Origin: a virus
Taxonomy: Duplodnaviria > Caudoviricetes
DNA: 64,000 nt
Virus record (IMG/VR): IMGVR_UViG_3300009678_000059
Span: 10,165 to 74,164 of that record
Direction: 5' to 3' (one strand)
Below, piece by piece: positions 15,085 through 34,390 of this stretch. The notes beneath the pieces are model-generated. The model ran no database searches, was not told the origin of the DNA, and was given only the letters and a program-made list of their open reading frames with translations. The first letter of the stretch is position 1. Each line of letters opens with the position of its first letter. The translations under genes were made by a program, and so were the position numbers.

Positions 15085-15160
15085 CCCGTAAATCAAGAGG
15101 TCGTAGTCTCTATCCTTACGGGAATTCAAATGATGTTTTTATTTCGGCTACGACTCCGAA
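15085..15160 (-). ncRNA. kissing-loop 5' leader, copy A
   Basis: Sense strand: UUCGG[AGUCGUAG]CCGAA ... CCCGUAAG-GAU-AGAG[ACUACGAC]CUCU-UGA-UUUACGGG-UUUUU. Loops pair GUCGUAG/CUACGAC. Confidence 0.75.
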
Positions 15161-15163
15161 CTG

Positions 15164-15171
15164 CAAATATA
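15164..15171 (-). promoter_or_regulatory. -7 box (TATATTTG) for leader A/HNH
   Basis: TAnnTTTG 3 nt upstream of hairpin P1. Confidence 0.75.
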
Positions 15172-15186
15172 CTCACAATTATTCGT

Positions 15187-15194
15187 TATTTTTG
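15187..15194 (+). promoter_or_regulatory. -7 box (TATTTTTG) for terminase
   Basis: TAnnTTTG 32 nt before ATG 15227, back-to-back with the antisense promoter. Confidence 0.65.
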
Positions 15195-15226
15195 TCTTAA
15201 ATGTAATTTGAATTAAATCTAAATAA

Positions 15227-17875
15227 ATGAAAGACTTATCAAAGGATGTCGAGTACGCAATATCAAACTGTATTGATGTATTGAATTACGATGTAGATAT
15301 TGTCGGAGTCAAGAGTGAGAAGTTACAATCTGTAATGTCCTCCAAGATAGACACGTTTGCTTCTGCCAAAGAATTAATACTTACCTGGGAAAACTCACTG
15401 AATGCTCCAAGAGAAACCAAATTAAGGAAATATGTTCAGGATTTGGTAGACGCAGGAGAGAACGCTATTGAAGTACTTAGGTTTGCATTAAGAAAAGACA
15501 TTGATCCGAATGAAGTGGATCCTGAGCGCCACGGTATCGCTGCAAAGGCAAAACCACTGATTTTTAAGGCAATCAGTGAAATTAACTCAGGAGTTATTCA
15601 ATTAAGGATGCAACTTGACGCAGGTAAAATTGACTTAAAAGCAAGGGAGTTTACGAGATCGTTTCCGGAGAAGTTTGCGAATCAGGAATTCTTTCCTGAA
15701 AAAGATTATTACAAGGAATGGTATGACGAAGCCACTGACAGTGTAATGCTTTGCCCTCTAGGAACTAAAGGTGAGATTATAAATCTTAGCGGACTGAACA
15801 TCATGCTTCCTAAACCTCCGCCGAAAACAAAAATCCTGTTCCATAAACTGCCAAAGGAAGAACAATACTGGAGACGTACAGAGGTTCCGAAAGGACTGAC
15901 TGTTGATACGGAAGACCAATTCACGGAATATATTTTAGAGGAATTCAGAAGACGTAGAGAAGGCGTTTGGTTTTACAATAACGGAGTCCCTGTATGGCTT
16001 ACTCCTGCGCACTACATGGCGCTACAACACATCAAGATGCTTGATACCGGCGAATGTATGGATTTCAGGTTCGCACAAAGGGATATGTTTTATTTTACAA
16101 GAGCTTGCGACGTTGACCAAAGATGCTTGGGTGAATTTTTCGTAAAGTCAAGACGTACCGGATTTACCTATCAGATTATTTGTGAGTACATCAATGACGG
16201 TACAATGATGGGGAATTCAAGATTAGGTATGATTTCTAAGACAGGGGAAGATGCTCAGGAAAACTTCCTGAAAATGGCCTATGGCATTCAGAATCTACCA
16301 TTCTTTTTCGTTCCGGTAGTCAAGGGTAAAATTGACAGCAAGACGGAAATCGAATTTGCAAAACCATCAGATTCCACCAAAACTTCAAAGAAAAAGAAAG
16401 ACAACAGTACTGATGATTACCTGAATACTTTGCTGAACTGGAAAACAACCACTGAGTCGGCTTATGACGGACTTCGTATGAAGAAACTGTTTGTCGATGA
16501 AGCATCAAAACCATTACCGCCTTTTAACTTAGAAACGTATTTTGGTAGGGTAGCGCCAACGGTAAATAATGGTGGACGCATAGTCGGGAAGCTGTATTTT
16601 GGATCGACGGTTAATCCAATGTCGAAGGGAGGAGACAAGTTCTACAAGATGTATTTAGGCTCCATTATATCCAAGCGAGACAAAGACACCAATAAGACGG
16701 CAACAGGGCTTTATGCTCACTTCTTAGCAGCTCACCTGAACATGGAATTGTTTACGGATAAGTACGGAGTATGTCATACAATGGTGTTGCCTGGGGAATC
16801 TTTCCTTAATGTTTACGGGGATAAAATCTCACAAGGCTCCATACAGTACCTTGAAAATATCCGTAGACAGAAAAGAAAGCAATCGCCTATTCTTTACAAC
16901 GAGGAGTTGAGAGCAAATCCGATGACAGTTGAGGAAGCATTCAGGGATGAAGCAAAAAGCAGTCTGTTTGATTTGGAGAGGCTAAATGACCAAATCGCCT
17001 ACAATAATGACATGGAAGTTGAGCAGACTCTTGTCAGGGGTAATTTTTCATGGAAGGACAACATAAAGGATTCAGAGGTAGTCTGGACTCCTGCGGCACA
17101 GGGCAGATTCCTGCTGTCATGGATTCCGCCAAAGGAACTTCAGAACAGATGGACAACGAAAGCTAATCCGTTTGGAGGCCAGAGCAGGTATCCTTTGAAT
17201 GATGATTTAGGAAGTTTGGGAGTCGATAGTTACGATATTGATGCAGTTCAGGATTCACAGCTTACAAATACGGAGAATGGCTCGGAGTACGACTTAGGCT
17301 CTAAGGGCGCTATTCACGGAGTAACCGGAATGACGATGAAAGACGCACCGAGCAATTACTTCTTTCTGGAATACATTGCAAGGCCACAGTCTGCAGAGAT
17401 ATTCTTTGAGGACGCTTTGATGGCGACGGTATTTTACGGTATGCCGATTATGATTGAGAGTAATAAGGCGAGGATTTTATACCACTTTAAGAATCGCGGC
17501 TACAGGGGCTTCGTGATTACACGTTTTGACAAACCTGCTAATAGATTATCGCCAACGGAAAAGATGCTCGGAGGGTTGCCGTCAAACAGTGAGGACGTGA
17601 TACATATGCACGCAAATGCCATCGAACTATACATCAATAAGTATGTAGGTATTTATTCTCAGGGGCAAGATGTTGTAGCTGCCCGTGAAGAAGGTGAAAT
17701 CGGAAGCATGCCTTTTAATCGTACGCTTCGTGACTTTTCTAAATTTGATTTACGAAACAGGACAAAGCATGATGCAACCATTAGTGCGGGACTAGCTCTT
17801 TTGGGGTGTAACCGTAAGTCTTACACGGTACAGCAAGTGAGTAAGTCATTAGATTTCAAGATTAGGACGTTTTAA
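15227..17875 (+). CDS. terL: terminase large subunit with an N-terminal TerS-like extension
   Basis: Walker A VKSRRTGFTY, Walker B LFVDEASK, nuclease GVDSYD and HDATIS; 882 aa with about 150 aa of helical N-terminal extension. Confidence 0.92.
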   Translation: MKDLSKDVEYAISNCIDVLNYDVDIVGVKSEKLQSVMSSKIDTFASAKELILTWENSLNAPRETKLRKYVQDLVDAGENAIEVLRFALRKDIDPNEVDPERHGIAAKAKPLIFKAISEINSGVIQLRMQLDAGKIDLKAREFTRSFPEKFANQEFFPEKDYYKEWYDEATDSVMLCPLGTKGEIINLSGLNIMLPKPPPKTKILFHKLPKEEQYWRRTEVPKGLTVDTEDQFTEYILEEFRRRREGVWFYNNGVPVWLTPAHYMALQHIKMLDTGECMDFRFAQRDMFYFTRACDVDQRCLGEFFVKSRRTGFTYQIICEYINDGTMMGNSRLGMISKTGEDAQENFLKMAYGIQNLPFFFVPVVKGKIDSKTEIEFAKPSDSTKTSKKKKDNSTDDYLNTLLNWKTTTESAYDGLRMKKLFVDEASKPLPPFNLETYFGRVAPTVNNGGRIVGKLYFGSTVNPMSKGGDKFYKMYLGSIISKRDKDTNKTATGLYAHFLAAHLNMELFTDKYGVCHTMVLPGESFLNVYGDKISQGSIQYLENIRRQKRKQSPILYNEELRANPMTVEEAFRDEAKSSLFDLERLNDQIAYNNDMEVEQTLVRGNFSWKDNIKDSEVVWTPAAQGRFLLSWIPPKELQNRWTTKANPFGGQSRYPLNDDLGSLGVDSYDIDAVQDSQLTNTENGSEYDLGSKGAIHGVTGMTMKDAPSNYFFLEYIARPQSAEIFFEDALMATVFYGMPIMIESNKARILYHFKNRGYRGFVITRFDKPANRLSPTEKMLGGLPSNSEDVIHMHANAIELYINKYVGIYSQGQDVVAAREEGEIGSMPFNRTLRDFSKFDLRNRTKHDATISAGLALLGCNRKSYTVQQVSKSLDFKIRTF

Positions 17876-17926
17876 CCATATATAGAAAAATAATATCATA
17901 GTGAAAAATATCATAAGAAAAAATTA

Positions 17927-17934
17927 TACTTTTG
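17927..17934 (+). promoter_or_regulatory. -7 box (TACTTTTG) for portal
   Basis: TAnnTTTG 19 nt before ATG 17954. Confidence 0.65.
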
Positions 17935-17953
17935 TTAAAACAACTGAGCAGTA

Positions 17954-20395: not shown

Positions 20396-20403
20396 ACCAA
20401 TAT

Positions 20404-20446
20404 GGCCGATATGCCTCTCGACGAAGCACACTTTATCGGCCTTTTT
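20404..20446 (+). terminator. intrinsic terminator after portal
   Basis: GGCCGATA...TATCGGCC stem followed by TTTTT. Confidence 0.7.
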
Positions 20447-20499
20447 CTACTTAAATAGACGATTTCTATAAGAAAAACCTTTACGATAGATTTTTTTTA

Positions 20500-20507
20500 T
20501 ACTTTTG
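20500..20507 (+). promoter_or_regulatory. -7 box (TACTTTTG) for the scaffold-capsid operon
   Basis: TAnnTTTG 33 nt before ATG 20541. Confidence 0.65.
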
Positions 20508-20540
20508 TTGTAATAATGCAATTAAATCTAAATCAATAAT

Positions 20541-21686
20541 ATGCCAAACGAAGAACAGATTGGGACTGAGGAAAATTTGGAAACTCAAATTGAGAATCAG
20601 GAACCGGTAAAACAATGGGGTGTAGTTCGCGAGGATGAGCCATCGAGTTACGCAGGAGAGAAGCTGACGATATTAGGAGAGGATAATCCGGACGATACGG
20701 TAATCACTCCGCCTGCAACTAACGAAGAAGTGGTTACACCACCTGCATCGACAGAAGAAATAGTTACTCCGCCTGCAACTGAAATTCCTGCGGCAACAAC
20801 ACAAGCGGAAATTGACGACATAGCTGTGTTGAACTATTTAAAGGAAAAAGGATTTTCTGCTGAGAAGCTGGAAGACCTGAAACCTAAAGAGTCTATACAA
20901 CTGGATCCGGAAATGGAAAAGTACCTAGAGTACAAGAAAGACACCGGAAGAAGTTAAGCAGACTTCATGGAATTACAAAAGGATTGGACAGCAGTGGATA
21001 AAGGAGACATCCTTATGCAGAATCTGCGAAATGAAAATCCTACGTTGAACCAAAAACAATTAGAGTTTTTGTTCAACAAAGAATACAGTTTTGACGCCGA
21101 CCTGGATGATGACAACGAAATCACCATGAAGGAAATAAACATAGAGCGTGATTACCAGAGAGGTCTTAGGACATTGGAGAGTCAGAAGGAGCAATACAAA
21201 GCAGTCAGAGGTTCTGATGAAGGTATCCCGGAAGAATACAAAAATGCCAAGACAGCGATGGACAACATGCTCAAACAGCAGGAGGAAGCAAGGACTACTT
21301 ATGAGAGTACGATTCAGGACTTTCAGGCAAAAACTGATGCGGTATTTACCAACAACTTTGAAGGTTTCGAAGTAAAAGTAGGTGAGGAATCATTCAGAAT
21401 CAAGCCGGAAGACGTACAGAGTGCAAAAAACACTTTGTCTGACCTGAACAACTTCAATACGAAGTTCTTTGACCAAACAGGAAAACTGACAGATCCGTCG
21501 GGTTATTACAAGGCATTGCATTTTGCTATGAACGCTGATAAGGTTGCGGAACACTTCATTAATCTGGGTAAATCCATGAGAGCTGAAGAGGAAGACCGCG
21601 AATCTAAAAATATCAAAGTTTCAGGGCCTGGCAATATCTCAAATAACCTTGGAGCATCGGGCAAATCCTGGAAAGTCGTTAGCTAA
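20541..21686 (+). CDS. capsid scaffolding protein containing one in-frame TAA (20955-20957)
   Basis: ORFs 20541-20957 and 20967-21686 are in the same frame: ...YLEYKKDTGRS*ADFMELQKDW...; acidic, located between portal and MCP. Confidence 0.75.
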
Positions 21687-21732
21687 ATCTCGCGAAAAGT
21701 ATTTTTTATAAAACGACAAAAAACAAGAACAC

Positions 21733-23074: not shown

Positions 23075-23103
23075 AAACCCACTCAATTCGAGTGGGTTTT
23101 TTT
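23075..23103. terminator. bidirectional intrinsic terminator
   Basis: AAACCCACT-CAATTCG-AGTGGGTTTTTTT between MCP and the convergent HNH. Confidence 0.85.
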
Positions 23104-23767
23104 ATATATGCGTCCATGTTTTTCTTTTTAAAATGTTGCATACAGTTGCTTTTGATACGCCAAATCTTCCAGCTATTTCGCCAAGAGAAATCGAGTATCC
23201 TATTTCACGTATATCCAACACCTCGCTTTCAGTAACTTTAGAAGCTCCGTTTTTTGATCCACTGGGCGGTTTTCTCAAACCCATTTCCCACGAATGCTGT
23301 ATATTTTCTTCATTAGTGCACCATTCTAAATTCCAATCATTATTATTTGTCTTGTCTCCGTCCTTATGGTTTACTTCGGGTAAATTAAGTGGATTTGGGA
23401 CAAAAGCCATTGCAACTGCTCTGTGTATTAAAATAAACTTATGCTTCTTATTATATTTTATTGAGGTAGCTAGGTATCCGTTTTCGGTCAATTGAGGAAC
23501 CCTTAATCTATTTGTTGGAAATCCAGCAACCGATATTCTTCTAATTCGGCCTGTATTGCTAGTTACAAAAGTATCCTCCATTCCTACACTTGGAAGCCAA
23601 ATCTCTCCTGGTAAATCAGCGATTCCAACCACCCCTTTCCTCGTAGTATTTCTTTCTACGTCGCACTTTTTGCAAGCGGCTATTCTTTTATCTGAGCCTC
23701 TCCTTCTGAAATGAAACAAGAATAAAGGTTTCTCAACACCACACTTTGTGCAGATTTTCGTTTCCAT
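23102..23767 (-). CDS. HNH homing endonuclease (paralog of 14413-15072)
   Basis: CTKC..CKKC; EIWLPSVGMEDTFVTSNTG; IHRAVAMAFVPNPLNLPEVNHKDGDKTNNNDWNLEW; C-terminal HTH. Confidence 0.92.
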   Translation of the reverse strand: METKICTKCGVEKPLFLFHFRRRGSDKRIAACKKCDVERNTTRKGVVGIADLPGEIWLPSVGMEDTFVTSNTGRIRRISVAGFPTNRLRVPQLTENGYLATSIKYNKKHKFILIHRAVAMAFVPNPLNLPEVNHKDGDKTNNNDWNLEWCTNEENIQHSWEMGLRKPPSGSKNGASKVTESEVLDIREIGYSISLGEIAGRFGVSKATVCNILKRKTWTHI

Positions 23768-23933
23768 ATTTTACGAATTCAAGGCTTTTGCGATTTCGTT
23801 GTACGCATTCATTTGCTCAATATATTCTTCATCTTTTACTTTTCCTTCCCTACGAGCGATTATTAAATCTCTAATAGCTACTCTAATTGTTTCGATTACT
23901 TCTTCTTTGTTCATGGTTTTCTGTTTTTATTAA
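23748..23933 (-). CDS. hypothetical protein
   Basis: 61 aa, overlaps its neighbours in the antisense operon. Confidence 0.55.
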
Positions 23934-24319
23934 ATTCCTATTTGTTTTTTTGCTGATTCGGTTAGGGTTATGCCTGTACCTACTAAATCTTCAATCTTAT
24001 AACAGCCTTTTAGTATTTTCCAATCCTCAAATCTAACAGTCCAAACTGCCCAATCCTCAAACAAAACCTTTTCTTTGGCTTGTTGATAAATCGGTTGTTC
24101 TTTTTCCCATCTATCCCATTCCTCATCTGTTGCAGGAGATAATGGTTTACCTAACAAAACATTTCCCTCATCATCTACGCAAACAAACATTTCAAGTTTT
24201 AACGGCTTTTTTAGGAATAATGCGTAGTTTATTATGTTGATTGAAAAAGCGTTTGCTTCTCCTTTGCATTTTAGCCTTTGCTCTAAAACAAAATCGGTCA
24301 TTGATATTAATTTATTCAT
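23930..24319 (-). CDS. hypothetical protein (Flavobacterium-phage-type)
   Basis: MNKLISMTDFVL...NYALFLKKPL.LEMFV...YQQAKEKVLFE...LTESAKKQIG. Confidence 0.7.
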   Translation of the reverse strand: MNKLISMTDFVLEQRLKCKGEANAFSINIINYALFLKKPLKLEMFVCVDDEGNVLLGKPLSPATDEEWDRWEKEQPIYQQAKEKVLFEDWAVWTVRFEDWKILKGCYKIEDLVGTGITLTESAKKQIGI

Positions 24320-24563
24320 CTCTCAGTAGTTTTTGCAGTTCTCGTCTCCTATCAACTAATTTCTCATCGTTATTACCGCATAGTTGCAGCTCATATAGTT
24401 TTCCTTCGATTTGGTCAAGTTCCTGTTGTAGTTTTTCTTTCATATATTTTTCTTTCATGTTTGGTTTATATTCTTTGATACATTTTAGACAGTAGGCGAA
24501 TATTCCGTTCTCGCTGTTTTTTAATGATGGTTTTGGGATTTTGCAGGCGCAGGTTTCTTTCAT
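24312..24563 (-). CDS. hypothetical protein with a CxC...CxxC zinc-binding N-terminus
   Basis: 83 aa; CACK...CLKC, then coiled coil. Confidence 0.55.
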   Translation of the reverse strand: MKETCACKIPKPSLKNSENGIFAYCLKCIKEYKPNMKEKYMKEKLQQELDQIEGKLYELQLCGNNDEKLVDRRRELQKLLRDE

Positions 24564-24586
24564 GGCTCTTTCTCGATTGTATTTGG

Positions 24587-24835
24587 TTAATAGTTATTTA
24601 TATCGAATGTGATGTCTCGGCCTTTCCAACTTTCATCGACTTCTGCGGTTGAAGCCCAAATTAAATCCGGATAAGTTGATTCAAATACTCTTACTGCGAC
24701 GCTTCTGTTTTGCTCTTTGGTTTCTATTATTTTATAGCCTAATAAATCTCCATTATGGCGTGTGTACAATACTTTGTAGTAGTATCGCTTAGACAGTTTT
24801 GCTACCCATTGACTGAATGTTAGTTTTGGTTCCAT
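24587..24835 (-). CDS. hypothetical protein
   Basis: 82 aa, coupled to the upstream ORF (TAATG). Confidence 0.6.
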   Translation of the reverse strand: MEPKLTFSQWVAKLSKRYYYKVLYTRHNGDLLGYKIIETKEQNRSVAVRVFESTYPDLIWASTAEVDESWKGRDITFDINNY

Positions 24836-25065
24836 TATTTTTCTCTGATTATTTCAGCGTTAAAATACATGGCTAAATTCTCAACTTCCTGATTGAAGTC
24901 TGCTTCGTTTCTCCTTGTGTTACATAAGACAATAGTTCGTTCTTCACCCGACTTCCTTATTAAGCAATAAGCGAGAGCGTCTTTATCGTAGCTGTCTACG
25001 CCTATGAAGAATTCTTCTTTTATTTGCCCTAGTCCTGATTTGTCGATGTCAAATATTGTTTTCAT
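24835..25065 (-). CDS. hypothetical protein, first gene after leader D
   Basis: ATG 25065 (MKTIFDIDK...); the GTG at 25104 lies inside the RNA hairpin. Confidence 0.6.
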   Translation of the reverse strand: MKTIFDIDKSGLGQIKEEFFIGVDSYDKDALAYCLIRKSGEERTIVLCNTRRNEADFNQEVENLAMYFNAEIIREK

Positions 25066-25085
25066 AATTTCTGTATAAAAAGAAA

Positions 25086-25177
25086 AGCCAACTATAGCTC
25101 TCACACTATAATTGACTTTCTTGATTAGTCGTTATTCCTATTGACTAATAATTTCTTAAAGGCTAGTGAGAGATAGC
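25086..25177 (-). ncRNA. kissing-loop 5' leader, copy D (extra hairpin in the linker)
   Basis: Sense: GCUA[UCUCUCAC]UAGC ... AUUAGUC(12 nt)GACUAAU ... AGUCAAUUAUAG[UGUGAGAG]CUAUAGUUGGCU-UUUCUUUUU. Loops pair CUCUCAC/GUGAGAG. Confidence 0.7.
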
Positions 25178-25183
25178 TTGGGA

Positions 25184-25191
25184 CAAATGTA
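25184..25191 (-). promoter_or_regulatory. -7 box (TACATTTG) for leader D operon
   Basis: TAnnTTTG 6 nt upstream of P1. Confidence 0.7.
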
Positions 25192-25297: not shown

Positions 25298-26275
25298 ATG
25301 TCAGAAAACAAAAAAGCGCCTCTTTTTGGAAAGAAGGTTGAAACGGAAAAAGAAACAGTTATCCCGGAAGTAAAAGTTACGGAAACTCCGATGATTACAA
25401 TGTCGATAGATGAGTTGAATGCTCTTATTGACTCAAAACTGAATGCTGCCAAAACTCCGGAAGTAAAGCAGGAGAGAGTAGTTTCAAAGGAGGAGAAGAC
25501 TATCAGAAACCACATGTCAGATGACATCCCTGAATTACGAGATTTCCCTGTGAGAGAGAGAATTTATGTCTTATGTGACGGAAGTAAACCGGAAGCTCGT
25601 GAAATCAAGAGTCGCCATAAGCCTGGAAGTCCGTTACAATATTTCAATAGAGAAACTAACGAAAGTCACGCATTATTCTTCTCAATGACTCAGGCATCGT
25701 TTTACAAAACTGAACACAAAGGAGACTCGAAGGTTGACCACATCTTTATGAAAGACGGTATGCTTACAACCTATCCGGAAGATGTAAAATTACAATCGTT
25801 CCTTGAAATACATCCCGATAATGAAAAAAATGGTGGTTCGTTATTTATGGAATATTTGCCAGGTAAAGAGGCTGAGAATGATTTGGAAAGCGAAGACCTT
25901 TTGTTTGCCGCACAAAAACTAGCAAGAGAACTTTCTTTTATCCGTCAAGATGCTGTAGCAAGGCTTTTATGTAAAAACTACAAAGAGTCATGGGAACCCG
26001 CAGAAATGAAATTAGCTTTGTTTAACGAAGTAAAAAGATCTGCTAAGGAGTTTATGAAGTTGGCGAACGATCCTAGATTAGAGATCAAAGGAATTGCACG
26101 TACTGCTGTGCAAAGAGGTTTTATCGAGTATAAAGGTTACAAGTTTTGGAATGACCAAGGTGAAGTGATTGTAGATGTGCCACGTAATTCAAACGAATAT
26201 GAAGTATTGGCTGATTATTTCCTAAGCAACCAAGGTCGTAATTACTATGAATACTTGGTTAACTCAATCAATTAG
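25298..26275 (+). CDS. conserved post-capsid protein of Bacteroidota podophages (probable virion/head-completion protein)
   Basis: ERIYVL...SRH...PLQYFN.ET...ALFF...Q...KDGML...DVKLQSFLEIHP.N. Confidence 0.7.
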   Translation: MSENKKAPLFGKKVETEKETVIPEVKVTETPMITMSIDELNALIDSKLNAAKTPEVKQERVVSKEEKTIRNHMSDDIPELRDFPVRERIYVLCDGSKPEAREIKSRHKPGSPLQYFNRETNESHALFFSMTQASFYKTEHKGDSKVDHIFMKDGMLTTYPEDVKLQSFLEIHPDNEKNGGSLFMEYLPGKEAENDLESEDLLFAAQKLARELSFIRQDAVARLLCKNYKESWEPAEMKLALFNEVKRSAKEFMKLANDPRLEIKGIARTAVQRGFIEYKGYKFWNDQGEVIVDVPRNSNEYEVLADYFLSNQGRNYYEYLVNSIN

Positions 26276-27018
26276 TCAGTAATCTCAACTTTATAATTCA
26301 TCAAAGCGTTGTAGCACTCCGGTGTTATGACGCTTTTCCATTTCTCTGCCAACTCTTTAATGTAGCTTTCTTTAGCTATTTTATACACTTGAAATGCTTC
26401 TTCAATCGTTCTGAACAAGCCTAAGTAAATACGCATATCACCCTTGTTCAGTCTAGCTTGAAATCTATTCTTTTTCTTAACAATTCCAATGGGTAAGTCG
26501 GTTTTTTTATCACGTTTGGTTAATGATGTATTTATTTCGTGAGGAACAAAAACACATGTTTCAGGAGAGTATATTTTATTCCATTTCACAATTATATCTT
26601 TGTCTAGGTCACAATCTTCTATTTGGTTTTCCTCATACCATTTTGCAAATACTTGATAGTTATGCCATCTTTCATCTACAGAGCAACCAATGTATGATGG
26701 TCTTTTTTTAAGAGATTTTTCGCTATAACATCTTTGAATCATACTTTGCCAAGTACTATATGATTTTGTGGTCTCACCGTTAACCTTAGTTCTGTATTTA
26801 CCTTCGCCAAGGTATCCCATTCCGAAAACTGACCTATGAAACACATTTCGGACTACTCCTCTTTTTAGATTTGCAATTTGCATTCCAGTCATTGTGTGAC
26901 CACCTATATCAAACTTAATAGTGCAATCAAGTGCGCCAAAGAATTTAACTATCTCAATCCAATATCCTTCATTGGTTAAAAACCTTTCTCCTGTCCTGTC
27001 TATAAATTTTCCTTGCAT
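26272..27018 (-). CDS. HNH-type homing endonuclease (T4 MobD-like, AP2-like C-terminus)
   Basis: YSTWQSMIQRCY, YIGCSVDERWHNYQVFAKWY, LDKDII..NKIYSPETCVFVP.EIN, YLGLFRTIEEAF. Confidence 0.85.
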   Translation of the reverse strand: MQGKFIDRTGERFLTNEGYWIEIVKFFGALDCTIKFDIGGHTMTGMQIANLKRGVVRNVFHRSVFGMGYLGEGKYRTKVNGETTKSYSTWQSMIQRCYSEKSLKKRPSYIGCSVDERWHNYQVFAKWYEENQIEDCDLDKDIIVKWNKIYSPETCVFVPHEINTSLTKRDKKTDLPIGIVKKKNRFQARLNKGDMRIYLGLFRTIEEAFQVYKIAKESYIKELAEKWKSVITPECYNALMNYKVEITD

Positions 27019-27029
27019 AAAATAAAAAT

Positions 27030-27101
27030 ACCCTCAAAAAAGGGTAGGACTCCTTAGATGAGGGTATAGTATAATGTTTTTGACAGCCGTCCTACTTGCT
27101 G
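27030..27101 (-). ncRNA. kissing-loop 5' leader, copy C
   Basis: Sense: CAGC[AAGUAGGACG]GCUG ... ACCCUCA-UCU-AAGG[AGUCCUAC]CCUU-UUU-UGAGGGU-AUUUUU. Loops pair GUAGGAC/GUCCUAC. Confidence 0.75.
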
Positions 27102-27105
27102 AGAA

Positions 27106-27113
27106 CAAATATA
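27106..27113 (-). promoter_or_regulatory. -7 box (TATATTTG) for leader C/HNH
   Basis: TAnnTTTG 4 nt upstream of P1. Confidence 0.75.
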
Positions 27114-27138
27114 CGAAGTTACTAAGCAAAAAAAACAT

Positions 27139-27146
27139 TAATTTTG
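27139..27146 (+). promoter_or_regulatory. -7 box (TAATTTTG) for tail genes
   Basis: TAnnTTTG 19 nt before ATG 27166. Confidence 0.65.
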
Positions 27147-27165
27147 TTAAAACAAACACAACAAT

Positions 27166-27897: not shown

Positions 27898-27905
27898 AAT
27901 AAGAT

Positions 27906-28784: not shown

Positions 28785-31700
28785 TGAGGATAGCAAATAA
28801 TTTTACCAAAGGAACGGTCCAAAATGACGTTGATGAGAGGTTCACAGACGGAGCCTTGGTTGGAGAGCCTGTTAATATTGAGATATTTACAGGGGTAGGT
28901 TCTGACGCCGGAGTCTTGAAGAACATTCCGGGAAACATAAAGATGTCTAACTATACCGAGCAGTTTTTTCTTTCTCCGAGCGCTAAGTGTATCGGAGCAG
29001 GAAAGAATGAGAGTGAGGAGAAGCTGTATGTTTTTATCAAGGACACGGCCTTCGATTTTGTTATCGAGTACAATTCGGTCACAAACACTTCGGCAAGAGT
29101 GCTTCAGTCGGCAGCTTCTTCAGGTGTACTGAATTTTAATGCAGATGAGAGAATCACCTGTGTTGACATTTTTATTGACGCAGTGACCAATGACACTATT
29201 ATTGCGTGGAGCGGCGACTCTAATCCTCCTAGGATAGTTAATGTTACCACCGCGAAAACATGGGCTGTTGGCGGTTTTACAAACGACGAAATCTCCGTGA
29301 TGAAGCCATCGCCGATATTCGCACCGGTTACTCACTTGACCACATCTACCGAAAGCATACTTAACAACTTTATTGAGGATAAGTTTCTGAGTTTTGCCTA
29401 CAGGTATAAGTATTCAGACGGATACTATTCGGCTCCGAGTTCATGGAGCGTGGTTGCATTTACGCCAAGCGATTTTAAACTGGATTATCAGACCTATGAC
29501 AACCTTGGAATGGTGAATCTTTCCAATGCTGTTGATGTTAGTTTCAATGTAGGTCCAAGGGACGTTGTTCAGGTTGATTTGTTATTCCGCGAAAGCGATC
29601 ATACGACTGTTTATGTGGTGCAACAATTCGTGAAATCTGATGAAGTATGGGAAGATGAGACGACTCAGACGTTTCAGTTCAGTAAATCGAAGATATATAC
29701 TGTTTTGCCGGAATCTCAGTATTTCAGGAATTTTGACAACGTGCCTTTGAGCGCGAAGGCTCAGACGGTAATAGGCAGCAGGATTGCGTATGCGAATTAC
29801 GTTGAGGGCTATGACATTACTGACAAGATAGACTTTGATGTAGCGGTGACATCTACGGAAGTATTCAGCTTCAATCAGGAAGGGATTGAGAATACCAACA
29901 TCCATATCGGGAATTGGGACCATACTGTTGATTTCGAGGAACTGACTTTTACAGAAAGAGAGTATGTTATGGCTCCTGTGGCCGACCAGATGAATTACAC
30001 GACAAATGAGATTACGATGAGCTATGCCAATCTTAATCCTGCGGCAGTAAATAAATTTGGGCGATTCGCAGCGACTGTTACTCCTGATTCCAGGTACGAC
30101 TCGGTTAACTACAGTATAGAATTCAGAAACGGGGCTACAATACTGCAGACTTCGGGGCCTTTTGCCGGAACTCAGACAGCGAGTTACGACACTCCACTTA
30201 ATGCGCTGTACACGGTAAAGGCTTATGTTATTCCGTCTACGGATGTACTGATATATGACTGCGAGATGAAATACAGCCTTGGCGACCTTGTGTTTTTGGG
30301 TGGCGGAGAATGGTTTATACAGGACTGGTATAAGGCATATTTTCAGGTATCGTGTATAAACACCACTACAGGGCCTCCGAGTTTTATCAATGCGTTTGCT
30401 ATAACCGACAGAATGGGTGTTGATCTTACCGGGTTTGAGTTTGTGACAGGAAAACAATTGCGTGTGAATATGGTATTGCAGTCCAGCTTGGTTAAGGAGC
30501 ATAGGCCGGACGCTACGTTTTACTACAATATCACCGAGGACTATGTGGATTTGGCTGATTTCATGACCAACTCTACGTTTCAGTCTGAATTTGAAGATAC
30601 GTTTACGCAGGTATTCAAAAACAACTACATAAGCAACGAGGGAGTTTTTGTGTCAATGACCGATTTCAGCATTACATATACCGGTGACACACTTAAAGTA
30701 AGCATGCCGGTTGTTGTATATAATGTTACGGAGCCTTCGGGTATTACCGAAAACAAGGATGAGTTTTTCCTTGTGTCCAGAGGGCGTGTTACATCTACCG
30801 ATACAAACGCCTATGCGTCTATGCACTCTAACAGGGATTACGAGACATGTCTGTTTTACATGGACGAGCAGGGAAGGAAGACAACGTCTTTGGTATGCGA
30901 CAACAATACAGTTTACATCCCGGCAGATAAGAGCGACCTGATTAACAGGCTTTCGGTTACTGTAAACAACGATCCTCCGAGTTGGGCCAAGTATTACAAG
31001 TTCGGCATCAAGCAGGTTAAGAAGCAGTACGAGACGATTTACGGGAATGTTGTTTATGAGGACGGAGTGTTCAGATGGATAAAACTTGAAGGCGAGAACA
31101 AGAACAAGGTTCAGGAAGGCGATCAGCTTATCGTTAAGACAGACATGTCCGGACCGTTGGACCAACTTGTGAAGGTGAAAGTTCTTGAAATAAAGGAACA
31201 GGCTGCAAACTTCATAACTGGGAACCTTAACGACCTTGGTGACGATATAAGCGAGCCGGCAGGACTGTACTTCAAGATTAAGCAGGGGACGTTTGATGCG
31301 AATGTCACACAGGAGTCATTCATGCAGTTTACCGAGACTGTGAAGCGAAGATATGCTTCGACTACATTTGTTACCACTGACCCTATATTCGGAATCATGG
31401 ATCCGGCGTTTGTACCTTATGCTGTTGCTGCGGGAACGACAATCAGATTCTTTCTGAACATGAAGGCTTACGGCTCGATTGCTTTTGACCATAAATTTGA
31501 AATCACGAAAGAGGCTGAGATAGATTACCTATCTGTTGAAGACTGGTTTAATGCGGAGATAGCAGCCAATGCGGATTACCTTGAATTCGTAGACGAAAAC
31601 TTCACGACTGCAGGATTTACTATTGACGGAGACAGGTTTCAGGTAAAACCAAACAGGGACGGAACGGCATCGAGGGACATTATCACCGAGGTTACATTTG

Positions 31701-33202
31701 ACATAAACTTCTCTCGTGGAACACTGATTTTTGAGACAGAACCAATAGAGCAGCTTAATGCCAATTTCTTTGAGACACCGAATGTTTACACTATCACTGC
31801 CGGAGCTCATGAATTTGTGGAACACAGCCTTACCGACACGTTTAACTGTTTTGCTTTTGGCAACGGGGTTGAGAGTTATAAGATAAAAGACGAGCTAAAT
31901 ACAAAGAGTTTTTCCATAGACTCGAACCCGTCTAACGTCAATACTGACGGCTATAAAAGGATTGTGAGATCTGCCGACATCACATATTCTGAGGTTTACA
32001 ACTCTAATTCCAACGTAAACAGGCTTAACGAATTCAATTTGTCACTTGCTAATTACAAGGACGATGTGGACAAGACTTTTGGCCCGATTTACAGACTGAA
32101 GGGCGAGAACACCAACCTTGAAGTTTACCAGGAAGACAAGGACTCCATCGTGTACTACGGGAAAGATTTGCTTTACAATGCCGACGGAACCACGAACTTA
32201 ACAGGAGTGCCGCAGGTATTGGGGACACAGAAGGCATACGAAGGAGAGTGGGGGATTTCCCAGCATCCTGACAGTTTTGACTTTTACGGTTATGACTCAT
32301 ACCACACGGACGTTAAGAGAGGATCTGTAATCAAGAAGTCGAACAACGGGCTGTTTGATATTTCGACTCAGGGAATGAAGACATACTTCAGAAGACTGTT
32401 TAAGGAAAACACAATTCAGCATATCAACGGGAAGTACGACCAGCTGAACAAGGTGTATATCCTGAACATCAAGTACAATGACGGCAACGAAGACCTATAC
32501 AGAACATGGGTTTATTCTGACGAGAACAACGGATGGTTGACTACTCAAACTTTCAATCCGGAAGACATGATACGTGTGAACGGGAACTTTTACTCATTTG
32601 AAAAAGGAGAGGTTTACAAGCACAACAACACTACTGACTTCAATACTTTTTACGGTATTTTTGCATACAGTGTAGCGTCGTTCAATATGAGTCATGAGCC
32701 AAGCAGTAGAAAGGTTTTTAAGACCATAGAGGTACAAGGAAACACAGCTCCGACTGTTGTATTAAGGACAGACATGGATTCAGGAAACGTGCAGCCGGAT
32801 TACTTTGAGAAAAAGGAAAACGTGTACCATTCGTACATCAGGATGAACAACGAGACTATGGATACCTCGCTTTTGAGCTATCAGGGAATCGGGACAGCTA
32901 CTGTGAATAGCTTTGACCTGGAATTTTCCTTCGACCTGGACAGCAATATATCTGTGGGCGACAAAATCCGTAATGTAGCCATGGAACTTGTAGGTGTGAT
33001 AACTTCTAAAACAAGGAATTCACTTACCTTAACCGCCATGGACAATATAATTTCGGGTGATTATGTGGTTTGCTGTAAGCCGGAATCTGCAGAACAGCAG
33101 GGTCTTTTGGGTTACACAATGAATGTAACAGCTACCTTTGGCGACACTGTACAGCAGGAGATATTCGAGATAGCCTCGGAAGTAAACAAATCATATTTGT
33201 AG
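28784..33202 (+). CDS. large tail nozzle/stabilisation protein (tubular protein B-like)
   Basis: About 1470 aa; F.KG...DVDER N-terminus, FSFAYRYKYSDG.YSAPS.WS, FDNVPL.AKAQ.VIG.R..YANY.EGY, GEWGISQHP.SF. Confidence 0.8.
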   Translation: MRIANNFTKGTVQNDVDERFTDGALVGEPVNIEIFTGVGSDAGVLKNIPGNIKMSNYTEQFFLSPSAKCIGAGKNESEEKLYVFIKDTAFDFVIEYNSVTNTSARVLQSAASSGVLNFNADERITCVDIFIDAVTNDTIIAWSGDSNPPRIVNVTTAKTWAVGGFTNDEISVMKPSPIFAPVTHLTTSTESILNNFIEDKFLSFAYRYKYSDGYYSAPSSWSVVAFTPSDFKLDYQTYDNLGMVNLSNAVDVSFNVGPRDVVQVDLLFRESDHTTVYVVQQFVKSDEVWEDETTQTFQFSKSKIYTVLPESQYFRNFDNVPLSAKAQTVIGSRIAYANYVEGYDITDKIDFDVAVTSTEVFSFNQEGIENTNIHIGNWDHTVDFEELTFTEREYVMAPVADQMNYTTNEITMSYANLNPAAVNKFGRFAATVTPDSRYDSVNYSIEFRNGATILQTSGPFAGTQTASYDTPLNALYTVKAYVIPSTDVLIYDCEMKYSLGDLVFLGGGEWFIQDWYKAYFQVSCINTTTGPPSFINAFAITDRMGVDLTGFEFVTGKQLRVNMVLQSSLVKEHRPDATFYYNITEDYVDLADFMTNSTFQSEFEDTFTQVFKNNYISNEGVFVSMTDFSITYTGDTLKVSMPVVVYNVTEPSGITENKDEFFLVSRGRVTSTDTNAYASMHSNRDYETCLFYMDEQGRKTTSLVCDNNTVYIPADKSDLINRLSVTVNNDPPSWAKYYKFGIKQVKKQYETIYGNVVYEDGVFRWIKLEGENKNKVQEGDQLIVKTDMSGPLDQLVKVKVLEIKEQAANFITGNLNDLGDDISEPAGLYFKIKQGTFDANVTQESFMQFTETVKRRYASTTFVTTDPIFGIMDPAFVPYAVAAGTTIRFFLNMKAYGSIAFDHKFEITKEAEIDYLSVEDWFNAEIAANADYLEFVDENFTTAGFTIDGDRFQVKPNRDGTASRDIITEVTFDINFSRGTLIFETEPIEQLNANFFETPNVYTITAGAHEFVEHSLTDTFNCFAFGNGVESYKIKDELNTKSFSIDSNPSNVNTDGYKRIVRSADITYSEVYNSNSNVNRLNEFNLSLANYKDDVDKTFGPIYRLKGENTNLEVYQEDKDSIVYYGKDLLYNADGTTNLTGVPQVLGTQKAYEGEWGISQHPDSFDFYGYDSYHTDVKRGSVIKKSNNGLFDISTQGMKTYFRRLFKENTIQHINGKYDQLNKVYILNIKYNDGNEDLYRTWVYSDENNGWLTTQTFNPEDMIRVNGNFYSFEKGEVYKHNNTTDFNTFYGIFAYSVASFNMSHEPSSRKVFKTIEVQGNTAPTVVLRTDMDSGNVQPDYFEKKENVYHSYIRMNNETMDTSLLSYQGIGTATVNSFDLEFSFDLDSNISVGDKIRNVAMELVGVITSKTRNSLTLTAMDNIISGDYVVCCKPESAEQQGLLGYTMNVTATFGDTVQQEIFEIASEVNKSYL

Positions 33203-33207
33203 AATTG

Positions 33208-33240
33208 AAAAACCCCGTCATAATTGGCGGGGTTTCTTTT
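33208..33240. terminator. bidirectional intrinsic terminator
   Basis: AAACCCCGTCA-TAAT-TGGCGGGGTTTCTTTT. Confidence 0.85.
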
Positions 33241-33639
33241 TTATAATCTTTTGAAATATTGGCCGAAGCCCTTGTCTCCCTCGGAAAATCCTGATTTCAG
33301 TAGTTTGTTGGCTATTATCGCACTTGAAGTAGGCACGAATAGCATTTTGAAATATCTTCCCTTCGCATAATCACATAATCCAACAATCAGTGCATCTAAA
33401 CCACCTTTCCTGTCTTTTACATCAGGATTTGACATGAAGTATGTTGGTATTGCAGTTGCCGAATTTGTTTCCCAAACCCAAACCAAGTATACCGGAACTT
33501 CGTTTTTATAAGTTACCAAGCATTTGTCTGGCAACAAGGTGAAATCAATCATATCGAATTTATGCTGTCCGCTCCAAAAGTAAAACGTGTTTACAAAGTC
33601 AATCTTTTTTCTAACTTTTGTTTCGAATTTATCAATCAT
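33241..33639 (-). CDS. GNAT-fold acetyltransferase-like protein (T7 gp13-type neighbour of ejection genes)
   Basis: LP...LVTYKNEVPVYLVWVWETNS..A...FMSNP..KDR..GLD.LI..L...AK...F......S...KL.K.GF. Confidence 0.55.
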   Translation of the reverse strand: MIDKFETKVRKKIDFVNTFYFWSGQHKFDMIDFTLLPDKCLVTYKNEVPVYLVWVWETNSATAIPTYFMSNPDVKDRKGGLDALIVGLCDYAKGRYFKMLFVPTSSAIIANKLLKSGFSEGDKGFGQYFKRL

Positions 33640-33642
33640 AGA

Positions 33643-34290
33643 TTATTTTTCTTTTAATATGGTTTTCACTAATTCTCGAAATGATTTTCTGCAACCATTG
33701 AATAGATGAATGTTGGCTAAAGCTATTTGATACATTGAATTAGCCAAATCTTCATTTGTAGTCCTTATTAATCTCAACTTAACACCATTACGCTGAATGT
33801 TAGACGCCCATTTTTTTTCTTCTCTATCCCAGCTAACACCGGTATATCGTGATGTTTTGTTTTTTATGTCCTTGGACGTGTTTTTTCTATGCGTTATTGA
33901 TTGTAGATTAACTGCTCTATTGTCTAATTTGATATTGTTTTTATGATCTACAACTTCCTCCCTACCACTTACTACGTGTCCATTAAAAACTGCTGCGACT
34001 AATTGATGTGTGAAATGAGTTGTTTTAACATCTTCGTTAGAGGTTCGGAAACATAGGTATTCATTTTTGCTGTAGTTTTGTTTTAGGATTTTACCTTCAT
34101 AAAAAGCGTGTCCTCCCCATCTTTTGTGGCGAACCATTCTGTCTAATGATTTAGCCCTGCCTAGGTCGCTTACTTTATACAGTCCGATATGATTAGGAAT
34201 ATCTCTCCATAATTCAATCTTCCAAAGCATATCTATTTCGCAGAAATAAGTAATGTCGGATAAATCTAAGTTTTCGTAATAATATGTCAT
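33643..34290 (-). CDS. NUMOD4-HNH homing endonuclease with AP2-like C-terminus
   Basis: ELWRDIPNHIGLYKVSDLGRAKS; THQLVAAVF...VVDHKNNIKLDNRAVNLQ; SRYTGVSWDREEKKW. Confidence 0.92.
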   Translation of the reverse strand: MTYYYENLDLSDITYFCEIDMLWKIELWRDIPNHIGLYKVSDLGRAKSLDRMVRHKRWGGHAFYEGKILKQNYSKNEYLCFRTSNEDVKTTHFTHQLVAAVFNGHVVSGREEVVDHKNNIKLDNRAVNLQSITHRKNTSKDIKNKTSRYTGVSWDREEKKWASNIQRNGVKLRLIRTTNEDLANSMYQIALANIHLFNGCRKSFRELVKTILKEK

Positions 34291-34303
34291 AAAAAAATAA
34301 AAA

Positions 34304-34377
34304 CCCGCACGTCAAGAAGTGGAAGGTTCTATCGATGCGGGAATTCAATAATGTTTTCAATCAGGCTTCCACTCCTG
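34304..34377 (-). ncRNA. kissing-loop 5' leader, copy B
   Basis: Sense: CAGG[AGUGGAAG]CCUG ... CCCGCAUC-GAU-AGAA[CCUUCCAC]UUCU-UGA-CGUGCGGG-UUUUU. Loops pair GUGGAAG/CUUCCAC. Confidence 0.78.
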
Positions 34378-34382
34378 TATTG

Positions 34383-34390
34383 CAAATATA
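34383..34390 (-). promoter_or_regulatory. -7 box (TATATTTG) for leader B/HNH
   Basis: TAnnTTTG 5 nt upstream of P1. Confidence 0.75.

Follow-up and report, generated by a model that had tools for sequence, protein, structure and literature searches.

A covarying kissing-loop RNA leader of phage homing-endonuclease and replication genes, a possible promoter-proximal attenuator

What is the structured element that separates promoter from start codon in the minus-strand endonuclease cassettes of this Flavobacterium-type phage genome, and what might it do for the genes behind it? The window, i.e. the whole 64,000-nt stretch of DNA analysed (positions 10,165 to 74,164 of IMG/VR record IMGVR_UViG_3300009678_000059), was described beforehand from its sequence as holding four minus-strand elements of shared architecture. 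All four were read, and in each (4/4) the order was a TAnnTTTG box, a hairpin P1, an A/U-rich linker, a long hairpin P2, a U-run and an ATG, the leader RNA being ~85-105 nt long. The count of four was too low: the genome has five copies, the fifth lying on the plus strand. Window positions are used for copies 1 to 4 and genome coordinates for copy 5.

15164..15171, minus strand: promoter box of copy 1, TATATTTG, Bacteroidota -7 type, among the intergenic TAnnTTTG sites
15143..15160, minus strand: copy 1 P1 hairpin, 5-bp stem, 8-nt loop at 15148-15155
15085..15122, minus strand: copy 1 P2, 8-bp outer and 4-bp inner stems separated by a GAU/UGA internal loop
15100-15107, minus strand: copy 1 P2 loop, complementary to the P1 loop
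15080-15084, minus strand: copy 1 U-run
14413..15072, minus strand: copy 1 cargo, NUMOD4 + HNH_3 endonuclease gene (Pfam), 219 aa, ATG at 15072
25184..25191, minus strand: promoter box of copy 2, TACATTTG, among the intergenic TAnnTTTG sites
25162..25177, minus strand: copy 2 P1 hairpin, 4-bp stem, loop at 25166-25173
25124..25149, minus strand: extra 7-bp hairpin within the linker, copy 2 only
25087..25116, minus strand: copy 2 P2, near-continuous 11-bp stem, loop at 25098-25105
25076-25086, minus strand: copy 2 U-run
23102..25065, minus strand: copy 2 cargo, several small ORFs, then an HNH_3 endonuclease gene at 23102-23767 (Pfam)
27106..27113, minus strand: promoter box of copy 3, TATATTTG, among the intergenic TAnnTTTG sites
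27084..27101, minus strand: copy 3 P1 hairpin, 4-bp stem, 10-nt loop at 27088-27097
27030..27065, minus strand: copy 3 P2, 7-bp outer and 4-bp inner stems separated by a 3x3 internal loop of pyrimidines
27044-27051, minus strand: copy 3 P2 loop
27024-27028, minus strand: copy 3 U-run, preceded by one A
26272..27018, minus strand: copy 3 cargo, HNH endonuclease, 248 aa (PHROGs phrog_953, E 1.1e-66)
34383..34390, minus strand: promoter box of copy 4, TATATTTG, among the intergenic TAnnTTTG sites
34362..34377, minus strand: copy 4 P1 hairpin, 4-bp stem, loop at 34366-34373
34304..34341, minus strand: copy 4 P2, 7-bp outer and 4-bp inner stems separated by a 4x4 internal loop that contains tandem G.A
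34319-34326, minus strand: copy 4 P2 loop
34299-34303, minus strand: copy 4 U-run
33241..34290, minus strand: copy 4 cargo, NUMOD4 + HNH_3 endonuclease at 33643-34290 (Pfam), then a 132-aa ORF
genome 7622-7717 (outside the window), plus strand: copy 5 leader, upstream of an HNH gene (hairpin-pair scan)
23075..23099, plus strand: A-stem-T hairpin between the end of a plus-strand late gene and the 3' end of cassette 2, with the form of a two-way terminator that would insulate the cassette
33210..33235, plus strand: simple two-way terminator-like hairpin of the same type at the 3' end of cassette 4

P1 lies 3-6 nt 3' of the box in all copies and has a stem of 4-5 bp and a loop of 8-10 nt, as was originally described. 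P2, previously given as 12-15 bp, has 11-12 Watson-Crick pairs and, besides these, a non-canonical hinge made either of tandem G.A with U.U or of U.U mismatches. Three copies share one P2 layout: outer stem (7-8 bp), internal loop (3x3 or 4x4), inner stem (4 bp) and 8-nt apical loop. P2 of copy 2 contains two G-U pairs that are possible on the minus strand only and was scored terminator-like, and the hinge of copy 5 is plain U.U mismatches, as in copy 3. The start codon of the window copies is found 12-21 nt past the P2 base. The P1 and P2 hairpins are the minimum-energy fold of the leader copies (ViennaRNA), and no alternative fold was found for the leader, the linker being nearly pure A/U. 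The two loops are perfectly complementary over 7 nt in 4/4 window copies, and an independent hairpin-pair scan regained all four loop pairs that had been listed. At -7 to -10 kcal/mol the loop-loop duplex is stronger than either P1 (-1 to -4 kcal/mol) or the P2 tip (0 to -3 kcal/mol) singly; whole P2 reaches -11 to -16 kcal/mol.

Hairpin pairs with a 7-nt loop complement are not rare by themselves (20 loci, against 15.4 +/- 3.8 in 40 dinucleotide shuffles). When a TAnnTTTG box just upstream of P1 was added, five loci were observed against 0.075 expected, with a shuffle maximum of 1. The compensatory covariation noted among the first copies was put to a homologue test of 76 distinct sequences, aligned to a model unable to score loop-loop pairs. 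The kissing helix was 99.8% paired across this set, and both sides change at five of its seven pairs; one such pair is CG in 49, GC in 19, AU in 6 and unpaired in 0. P1, outer P2 and inner P2 likewise covary. The observed values were reached by 0/500 shuffles and the signal vanished when the partners were slid by 1-3 columns. G-U pairs occur on the leader sense strand only. The element is a structured RNA encoded in sense with the cassettes, as the earlier description had it.

The leader recurs in well over a hundred phage sequences. It makes up a large RNA family, specific to phages and missing from Rfam 15, in keeping with the earlier failure to recognise it as a named family: no Rfam family matched, nor any riboswitch model even at E up to 5-10. 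A P2-only pattern search gave 101 distinct viral matches, among which 88 had an upstream hairpin with a P2-complementary loop and 85 had TAnnTTTG; a pattern of promoter and linker only also retrieved elements with matching loops. In bacterial genomes the P2 pattern found 2 true elements in 120 matches, and eight other matches satisfied the loop-complement test by chance. GATARA and TYTTGA are fixed letters of the P2 pattern, and conservation of the GAU/UGA hinge, and in part of the inner stem, is a product of this selection; copies retrieved by other routes have U-rich hinges. Covariance model R1 scored copy 1 at 95 bits, copy 3 at 37.6 bits and copy 4 at 94.7 bits, and misses copy 2 because of the linker hairpin at 25124..25149. 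The linker is 19-20 nt in 63/75 copies and 93% A/U, and an unpaired A opens both loops (71/75 and 69/75 copies). The preliminary description held that each loop pair differs from the others. This is so inside this genome, but across phages four of the seven kissing pairs are near-invariant and a handful of loop variants recurs, so that the loop "codes" are drawn from a small shared repertoire and are not free. Loops are distinct in all 13 multi-copy loci (P about 0.02), which lends weak statistical support to the suggestion that they keep the copies orthogonal; descent from different cassette lineages would explain distinct loops equally well.

The assignment of the genes behind the leaders stood (Pfam, PHROGs), three copies directly preceding an HNH gene and copy 2 heading a five-to-six-gene unit of which the HNH_3 gene is the last. 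A tie to HNH genes as such did not survive, since the same leader precedes GIY-YIG, endonuclease VII, helicase, primase, DnaD-like and replication-initiator genes and a 79-aa protein of unknown function, and identical loop sequences can precede unrelated downstream genes. Nor is the leader bound to antisense cassettes, being co-directional with the upstream gene in 85/93 copies. It is linked to a start codon as well as to a promoter: an ORF lies within 80 nt in 103/106 copies, starting <=22 nt from the U-run in 102/103 with a sharp mode at 6 nt, and in 69/103 the ATG is 4-7 nt past the U-run, which leaves no room for a second promoter. Three copies (L179, L159, L180) have no immediate ORF; one of these runs off the contig end and one has a broken, remnant-like P1. 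In cultured Flavobacterium phages the promoter, leader and endonuclease are jointly present or absent and thus form one mobile cassette. In phage mumin6-1 they make up, with an endonuclease of NUMOD4 type, a single ~624 nt insert between two genes that in phage filifjonk9-1, which lacks the insert, are 10 nt apart.

Restraint of expression, one of the functions originally proposed, is the most economical reading of these observations, and we infer that it is what the leader is for. The leader probably limits expression of the downstream gene, and we give about an even chance to its doing so in cis, as a promoter-proximal attenuator that the kissing loop tunes. Together with its host-type -7 promoter it would constitute a portable expression module that, in phages of Flavobacterium-type hosts, serves cassettes of free-standing homing endonucleases as well as some replication genes. 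Transcription would start at or beside P1, the hairpin whose loop makes the 7-nt pairing with the tip of P2. P2 with its U-run, which has the intrinsic-terminator form that had been ascribed to it with the loop held by P1, would halt a fraction of transcripts, whether begun at the module's own promoter or entering from upstream, and the nuclease and the genes behind it would be expressed solely by the read-through fraction. The kissing helix, with the near-fixed linker length, would set terminator folding and through it the level of read-through, either strengthening termination or, as in the guanidine-IV riboswitch, weakening it. Among 18 elements collected without requiring a U-run, 14 have at least five U directly after the G+C-rich lower stem. 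Against attenuation, one sublineage (L043 10119-10200, L090 333-413, L130 6598-6679, L159 6633-6715) has a U-run that begins 6 nt past the stem, yet keeps P1, P2 and the covarying loops, the fold being conserved where the canonical terminator is not. Likewise, two plus-strand HNH genes of the same genome (7100-7582 and 10104-10627) manage without the leader. A plain hairpin would be enough for attenuation; that so elaborate a fold is conserved hints at a further function, be it in binding a partner or in the stability or translation of the RNA.

The leading alternative, itself unlikely, is a gated switch in place of a fixed throttle, in which a factor of the phage or its host, either an antiterminator that binds RNA or a modified polymerase, would recognise the leader and allow passage of P2 only in mid-infection, by analogy with lambda N/nut or with Q on the PR'-tR' unit; the leader would then define a temporal class of replication genes and homing endonucleases. 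The helicase, primase, DnaD-like and replication-initiator genes headed by the leader besides nucleases fit this, as does the essential single-strand-binding protein gene that in mumin-type phages lies directly 3' of the endonuclease gene and would make a strong unconditional terminator costly, a point against plain attenuation too; the same cost would apply in the co-directional arrays that hold most copies. Conservation also exceeds the needs of pairing in the four near-invariant kissing pairs, the loop-opening A and the GAU/UGA hinge, the last with the caveat that the P2 pattern fixed it together with some of the inner stem. No candidate for the factor emerged, however; variable loop letters are hard to square with one sequence-specific binder, and in copies 3 and 5 and other diverged members plain U.U mismatches replace the hinge, which argues for a structural and not a protein-recognition requirement.

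That the leader is instead an independent small RNA gene, its ~85 nt stable, abundant product acting in trans as a host-protein decoy or sponge, or as a regulator through the single-stranded A/U-rich linker, with the downstream gene using the leak, appears rather improbable. The promoter-RNA-terminator layout is that of a classical small-RNA gene, with the terminated PR' transcript of lambdoid and Stx phages as precedent; the compact RNA, bounded by a hairpin at its 5' end and the terminator hairpin at its 3' end, would resist nucleases, and the few copies lacking an immediate ORF are in its favour. Opposed to this are the nearly universal adjacent ORF, the remnant-like state of one ORF-less copy and the gain and loss of the leader along with the nuclease gene; moreover, the loops occupy each other, leaving free only a low-information stretch of A/U, which differs from copy to copy. 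The small RNA working with the nuclease that had been suggested is unlikely because the downstream proteins are unrelated.

We are similarly doubtful, if slightly more so, of a role as mRNA stabiliser and/or translation platform, in which P1 locked to P2 would guard against 5'-end-dependent decay and a U/A-rich start region would be kept single-stranded beside a rigid hairpin, helping initiation, the U-run serving ribosome binding and not termination. Shine-Dalgarno pairing is rarely used in Bacteroidota. The constant position of P1 past the -7 box, the tightly constrained P2-to-ATG distance, the 93% A/U of linker and spacer and the fold kept in the sublineage with no adjacent U-run agree with such a role. 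The run of at least five U exactly at the foot of a G+C-rich stem is nevertheless the terminator signature, and the great majority of copies have it, even those collected without requiring it; the leaders of ordinary genes in this phage are short (19-64 nt) and unstructured, and many transcripts in co-directional arrays would not begin at P1. A small-molecule riboswitch of guanidine-IV build, whose ligand would make or break the kissing loop and so switch the terminator, shares the order of first hairpin, linker, terminator hairpin and loop-loop pairing but is very improbable: besides the null Rfam search, free covariation at three to seven positions leaves the loops no conserved pocket, which already makes it unlikely, seven G+C-rich Watson-Crick pairs should form with no ligand, and the downstream genes have no common metabolic theme.

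The guanidine-IV riboswitch (mepA motif) is a close relative in form to the attenuator that we favour. There an upstream hairpin kisses a terminator hairpin loop to loop and so controls read-through, and linker length against P2 stem growth governs the competition (PMC11611296). Both RNAs have two hairpins joined by a linker, the second of intrinsic-terminator form, with kissing apical loops. The riboswitch has conserved loop letters, guanidine-dependent pairing and efflux genes behind it; the leader, to which no Rfam model matched, has seven covarying Watson-Crick pairs that should form unaided, a long hinge-containing P2, a 19-20 nt A/U linker, and phage nuclease and replication genes behind it. 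The lambda PR' - 6S RNA - tR' unit resembles it in promoter, short non-coding transcript, intrinsic-terminator form and read-through-dependent genes, but stands once per lambdoid genome before the late operon, whereas leaders form many small units per genome; the lambda RNA lacks loop-loop tertiary pairing, and no Q-like factor or binding site was identified for the leader. In pT181/pIP501-family plasmid rep leaders, too, loop-loop kissing decides a leader terminator on a replication-gene mRNA, but the partner is a separate countertranscript and the folds are mutually exclusive, while here both partners lie in one RNA. HEARO (HNH Endonuclease-Associated RNA and ORF), the omega RNA of IscB, is likewise a structured RNA directly upstream of an HNH-domain gene; the leader, again with no Rfam match, is a third as long, lacks a guide segment and stands before non-nucleases as well, and its proteins are NUMOD4/HNH_3 or phrog_953 homing endonucleases of 215-255 aa that have no RuvC domain. 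Homing-endonuclease genes of T-even phages, free-standing or within introns, are restrained by several layers of control, and those for I-TevI and mobE (T4 and Aeh1) have their own promoter and an upstream RNA structure that keeps expression low or late. The leader cassettes share with them the own promoter, the RNA structure upstream and the status of the unit as an insert relative to siblings. The T-even hairpins sequester the ribosome-binding site or start codon, are gene-specific and have no kissing loop; in the leader the ATG lies outside P2, and the element is a portable family shared by HNH, GIY-YIG and non-nuclease genes.

The four minus-strand leaders of the window were found on reading to be built in one common order, running from a TAnnTTTG box (TATATTTG in three copies, TACATTTG in one) through a small 5' hairpin (P1), an A/U-rich linker, a long 3' hairpin (P2) and a U-run to the ATG. 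P1 begins 3-6 nt past the box and has a stem of 4-5 bp and a loop of 8-10 nt, and the foot of P2 lies 12-21 nt from the ATG. P2 of copies 1, 3 and 4 has two stems, an outer one of 7-8 bp and an inner one of 4 bp capped by an 8-nt loop, with a symmetric internal loop (3x3 or 4x4; the hinge) between them; in copy 2 P2 is nearly continuous, and the linker contains an additional hairpin. The minimum-energy fold (ViennaRNA) was P1 plus P2 in each of the four, and all were retrieved, with the loop pairs originally recognised, by a scan for adjacent hairpins with 7-nt loop complementarity, so that the part order and complementary loops of the preliminary description were confirmed. All four claimed copies stand, but the genome holds more than four, as the same scan returned a fifth on the plus strand, 2.4 kb before the window. 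No loop sequence is common to any of the five. By itself, complementarity of loops is no rarity (20 loci, compared with 15.4 +/- 3.8 in shuffled sequence), but when a promoter box shortly before P1 was also required it was observed at 5 loci, where shuffles gave an expectation of 0.075.

Directly upstream of copy 5, just before the window at L001:7526-7615 (+; genome coordinates of this phage), another TATATTTG box precedes a pair of hairpins, and a U-rich run ends the downstream one. The whole looks like a separate small-RNA gene of ~85 nt.

The genome is an IMG/VR virus record of 74,164 bp with seven HNH genes, which are placed relative to the leaders and late promoters as follows.

Leaders, HNH genes and late promoter boxes (window coordinates unless marked)
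15085-15171, minus strand: leader copy 1, heading a NUMOD4+HNH_3 protein (Pfam)
25086-25191, minus strand: leader copy 2, heading several small ORFs and then an HNH_3 protein (Pfam)
27030-27113, minus strand: leader copy 3, heading an HNH endonuclease of PHROG 953 (E about 1e-65), paralogous to that behind copy 5
34304-34390, minus strand: leader copy 4, heading a NUMOD4+HNH_3 protein (Pfam)
genome 7622-7717, plus strand: leader copy 5, heading the paralogous HNH endonuclease of PHROG 953 (E about 1e-65)
7100-7582, plus strand: HNH_3 gene without promoter or leader, co-oriented with tail-fibre-like neighbours
10104-10627, plus strand: HNH_3 gene with a TATATTTG box 14 nt before the ATG and no leader, co-oriented with tail-fibre-like neighbours
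310, 15187, 17927, 20500, 25265, 27139 and 34416, plus strand: TAyyTTTGT boxes of late genes

The HNH genes that had been assigned to copies 1-4, three directly behind the leader and one at the end of an operon, were thus verified by Pfam and PHROG matches. Two of the seven HNH genes being leaderless, the association is one-way in this genome: each leader has an endonuclease unit behind it, while some endonucleases lack a leader. The -7 boxes of the late structural genes are of the TAyyTTTGT flavour, often followed by TAAA, and their leaders are unstructured and 19-64 nt long; the TATATTTG box is used instead by the leader cassettes and a few other units. In four intergenic regions a box of each kind is present, the two arranged back to back at a distance of 16-74 nt, and simple two-way terminator-like hairpins close the antisense cassettes at their far ends. 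No tRNA or tmRNA gene was found in the window by ARAGORN. A search for close relatives gave no megablast match among 50,697 phage records, and an HNH protein query returned one distant locus only.

Copies in other genomes were sought with two patterns, each deliberately covering part of the element: the first combined promoter and linker word, and the second the P2 hinge and U-run only. The first gave 112 matches in 111 viral stretches, 17 of which passed a hairpin-plus-loop-complement filter, and 13 of these 17 (eleven loci) had the full architecture with other complementary loops. The second gave at least 101 distinct viral matches; among the 101 listed, 88 had, upstream, a hairpin with a loop complementary to that of P2 (over 7 nt in nearly all), and 85 had the TAnnTTTG box. 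As a control, the second pattern was run against 596 Gb of bacterial and archaeal genomes, where 120 matches included two real elements, both on short contigs from metagenome bins, and eight others that passed the complementarity test by chance. From these figures the leader is judged to be phage-specific and the false-positive rate of the loop test to be low. Among cultured phages, BLAST found a 92% identical, unannotated leader in 34 records from the Muminvirus group of Flavobacterium phages, and matched neither of two other leader variants. The preliminary description had not recognised a named RNA family, and Rfam 15 agreed: cmscan over the whole window returned nothing at gathering score, and a permissive scan (E up to 5-10) of the four window copies and one cultured-phage copy gave chance-level matches only, at 15-20 bits compared with cut-offs of 50-111. 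Full-text literature searches found no published description, and as far as can be told the leader is new to the literature; it may be included among the roughly 10,000 unnamed structured-RNA candidates that were catalogued from IMG/VR in 2023 (PMC10690425).

Divergent elements were also seen. At L125:5316-5411 (-), a variant precedes a 781-aa primase-like gene, and the partner of its P2 loop is an upstream 8-nt complement outside any obvious hairpin loop, which makes the pairing a pseudoknot and not a kissing loop. Four loci with the leader before replication-initiator genes (L055, L036, L059 and L068) have a second P2 subtype with kissing loops of 6-7 nt and an internal loop of AGUA opposite GAA(A), which we take to resemble a loop E or sarcin-ricin type motif.

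A covariance model was built from five copies on P1 and P2 only, a form in which loop-loop pairs cannot be scored by the model, and a search of the loci fetched with the P2 pattern gave 99 hits, 76 of them distinct. In the alignment of these 76 sequences 99.8% of the kissing-helix cells are paired, a single cell being unpaired in the whole helix, and both partners change in five of the seven pairs. Three of these five are variable (CG 49/GC 19/AU 6; CG 49/AU 22/GC 2; UA 64/AU 8/CG 1/GC 1), and the other two change in one sequence each; four of the seven pairs are almost invariant. Covariation was also present in P1, outer P2 and inner P2. The observed level was reached by none of 500 shuffles, the signal was lost when partners were slid by 1-3 columns, and the G-U pairs are compatible with the sense strand only. 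Together these results support the structure and its tertiary pairing as well as comparative analysis allows, and the compensatory covariation first claimed from four copies is borne out.

Several features outside the helix are also conserved. An unpaired A opens both loops (71/75 and 69/75), and the linker, 93% A/U, is 19-20 nt long in 63 of 75 sequences. The main-group hinge is GAU opposite UGA, amounting to tandem G.A plus U.U, and its near-invariance there is not independent evidence since the P2 pattern itself demands these letters. In copies 3 and 5 and other diverged members it is swapped for U.U mismatches, so the constant feature is a non-canonical hinge four pairs below the loop. Identity of the GAU/UGA hinge with a hammerhead, pistol or k-turn was rejected on comparison with these motifs, the other core elements and the 3-nt bulge being absent and Rfam giving no match. 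Calculated energies were -1 to -4 kcal/mol for P1 alone, 0 to -3 for the P2 tip alone, -7 to -10 for the loop-loop duplex and -11 to -16 for all of P2; with P1 and the P2 tip weak relative to the loop-loop duplex, both probably depend on the kissing helix. For P1, kissing helix and P2 stacked end to end, our own geometric estimate is a column of about 27 layers (roughly 75 A), a distance that a tether of 19-20 nt can just span; this would explain why the linker has a fixed length and why a hinge is needed.

In a sublineage with the U.U hinge, represented by the loci L043:10119-10200 (-), L090:333-413 (+), L130:6598-6679 (-) and L159:6633-6715 (-), the U-run does not begin until 6 nt past the stem. 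Loop covariation persists among its members, with GUGGACG in some and GUGGAAG in another.

Downstream genes were classified for 106 distinct copies. The expectation that leaders precede HNH/NUMOD4 genes held for about 50, which fall in one cluster, but not for the rest: GIY-YIG genes follow 10 copies and a gene for a 79-aa unknown follows 13, and endonuclease VII, primase, helicase, DnaD-like and replication-initiator genes also occur. A loop code matched to the type of downstream protein was rejected, as identical loops head HNH, GIY-YIG and other genes. The antisense setting that had been emphasised applies to the four window cassettes but not to the family, in which the leader and the gene upstream of it run in the same direction for 85 of 93 copies (median gap 60 nt), so that this window is the exception. 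The proposal that copy-specific loops keep cassettes orthogonal found weak statistical support: wherever a locus has more than one copy (13 loci), the loops differ (P about 0.02 if drawn randomly from the pool), but different cassette ancestry could equally account for this, with no selection for orthogonality needed.

In the cultured phage mumin6-1, a stretch of about 624 nt that separates a hypothetical gene from the SSB gene is made up of promoter, leader and NUMOD4 endonuclease. In its sibling filifjonk9-1 the same two genes are 10 nt apart, and promoter, leader and endonuclease are all absent. Presence or absence of the whole unit at one site in close relatives is the mark of a mobile homing-endonuclease cassette, and the joint absence indicates that the leader belongs to it; the polymorphism is one of the family, between these two phages, and not of the present genome. 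On comparison of the mumin6-1 cassette (L355:3458-4081) with the filifjonk9-1 site (L358:1141-1150), the same short A/T word, AAATAAATAA, was seen on both sides of the cassette. The first codons of the SSB genes behind the site differ between the two phages, which is what co-conversion beside a homing site would produce.

P2 with its U-run had been likened to an intrinsic terminator, and at the sequence level the likeness holds, the U-run lying directly at the foot of a G+C-rich stem in 14 of 18 elements whose retrieval did not depend on a U-run; a terminator consensus scan also scored copies 2 and 3. With the U-run and the ATG 4-7 nt apart in 69 of 103 copies, no room is left for a second promoter ahead of the gene, so that its expression has to run through P2. 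Most simply, the leader would be a promoter-proximal attenuator with a read-through level set by the fold; the kissing contact may strengthen or strain the terminator. A fuller form of the attenuator model, offered tentatively, is that the kissing loop is a ligand-free, RNA-only device programming the efficiency of an intrinsic terminator, that it serves as a portable "preset attenuator" giving mobile nuclease genes safe expression anywhere, and that loop differences within a genome are selected against cross-kissing.

Against a pure throttle it may be said that the sublineage keeps the fold without an adjacent U-run, that essential genes lie behind the leader in some phages, and that the fold is more elaborate than attenuation requires. 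Three rivals are therefore kept in view: a factor-gated switch in place of a fixed throttle, which we consider rather doubtful, a small RNA acting in trans, which seems unlikely, and a stabiliser or translation platform, which is quite unlikely. An ORF within 80 nt was missing in only 3 of 106 copies, one of which runs off the contig end just after an ATG and another of which has a damaged P1; this counts against the small RNA. A leader peptide was rejected because no ATG lies between promoter and P2 in the window copies, as was an opposite-strand mini-ORF read from the complement of the AAAACAT linker word, whose frames, read by eye, are 13-31 codons long with differing ends and leave the covariation unexplained.

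If the attenuator reading holds, the leader represents an RNA family that is widespread, covaries strongly and numbers well over a hundred copies in public phage contigs; the family is absent from Rfam and present also in cultured Flavobacterium phages, and it would explain how selfish nuclease genes bring their own promoter and brake. Few regulatory parts have been characterised in Bacteroidota, for whose synthetic biology the leader is a possible compact, tunable promoter-attenuator part. An experimental system is at hand in Flavobacterium sp. LMO6/LMO9 with mumin-type phages and a natural cassette-free sibling phage.

Among known systems, the T-even repression hairpin of homing-endonuclease genes holds the start codon or ribosome-binding site, whereas the leader ATG lies outside the hairpin, 12-21 nt beyond the P2 foot in window copies and 4-7 nt beyond the U-run in most others. 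For HEARO and the IscB omega RNA there was no Rfam match and no IscB-type RuvC plus HNH protein downstream, the 219-221 aa cargo proteins having NUMOD4 and HNH_3 as their only Pfam domains. The tandem RNA repeats of type III toxin-antitoxin loci (toxI repeats, terminator, toxN) are absent, the leader being a single unit with one model hit per site. The closest described architecture is that of the guanidine-IV riboswitch (mepA motif), in which completion of the terminator stem is hindered by kissing of its loop with that of the first hairpin, the length of the linker also having an influence (PMC11611296). The guanidine-IV model was not matched around any of the five copies scanned (four in the window, one from a cultured phage), even with E relaxed to 5-10, and its conserved loop nucleotides, the ligand site, are absent from the leader, where loop positions covary (CG/GC/AU, UA/AU, CG/AU/GC); with seven covarying Watson-Crick loop pairs no ligand pocket is apparent. 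The likeness is one of architecture only, namely two hairpins with apical loops able to kiss, the second of them terminator-like. If the reading is true, a tertiary loop-loop contact is here hard-wired to a terminator without a ligand, and a mechanism of the guanidine-IV type becomes testable in a simpler natural system.
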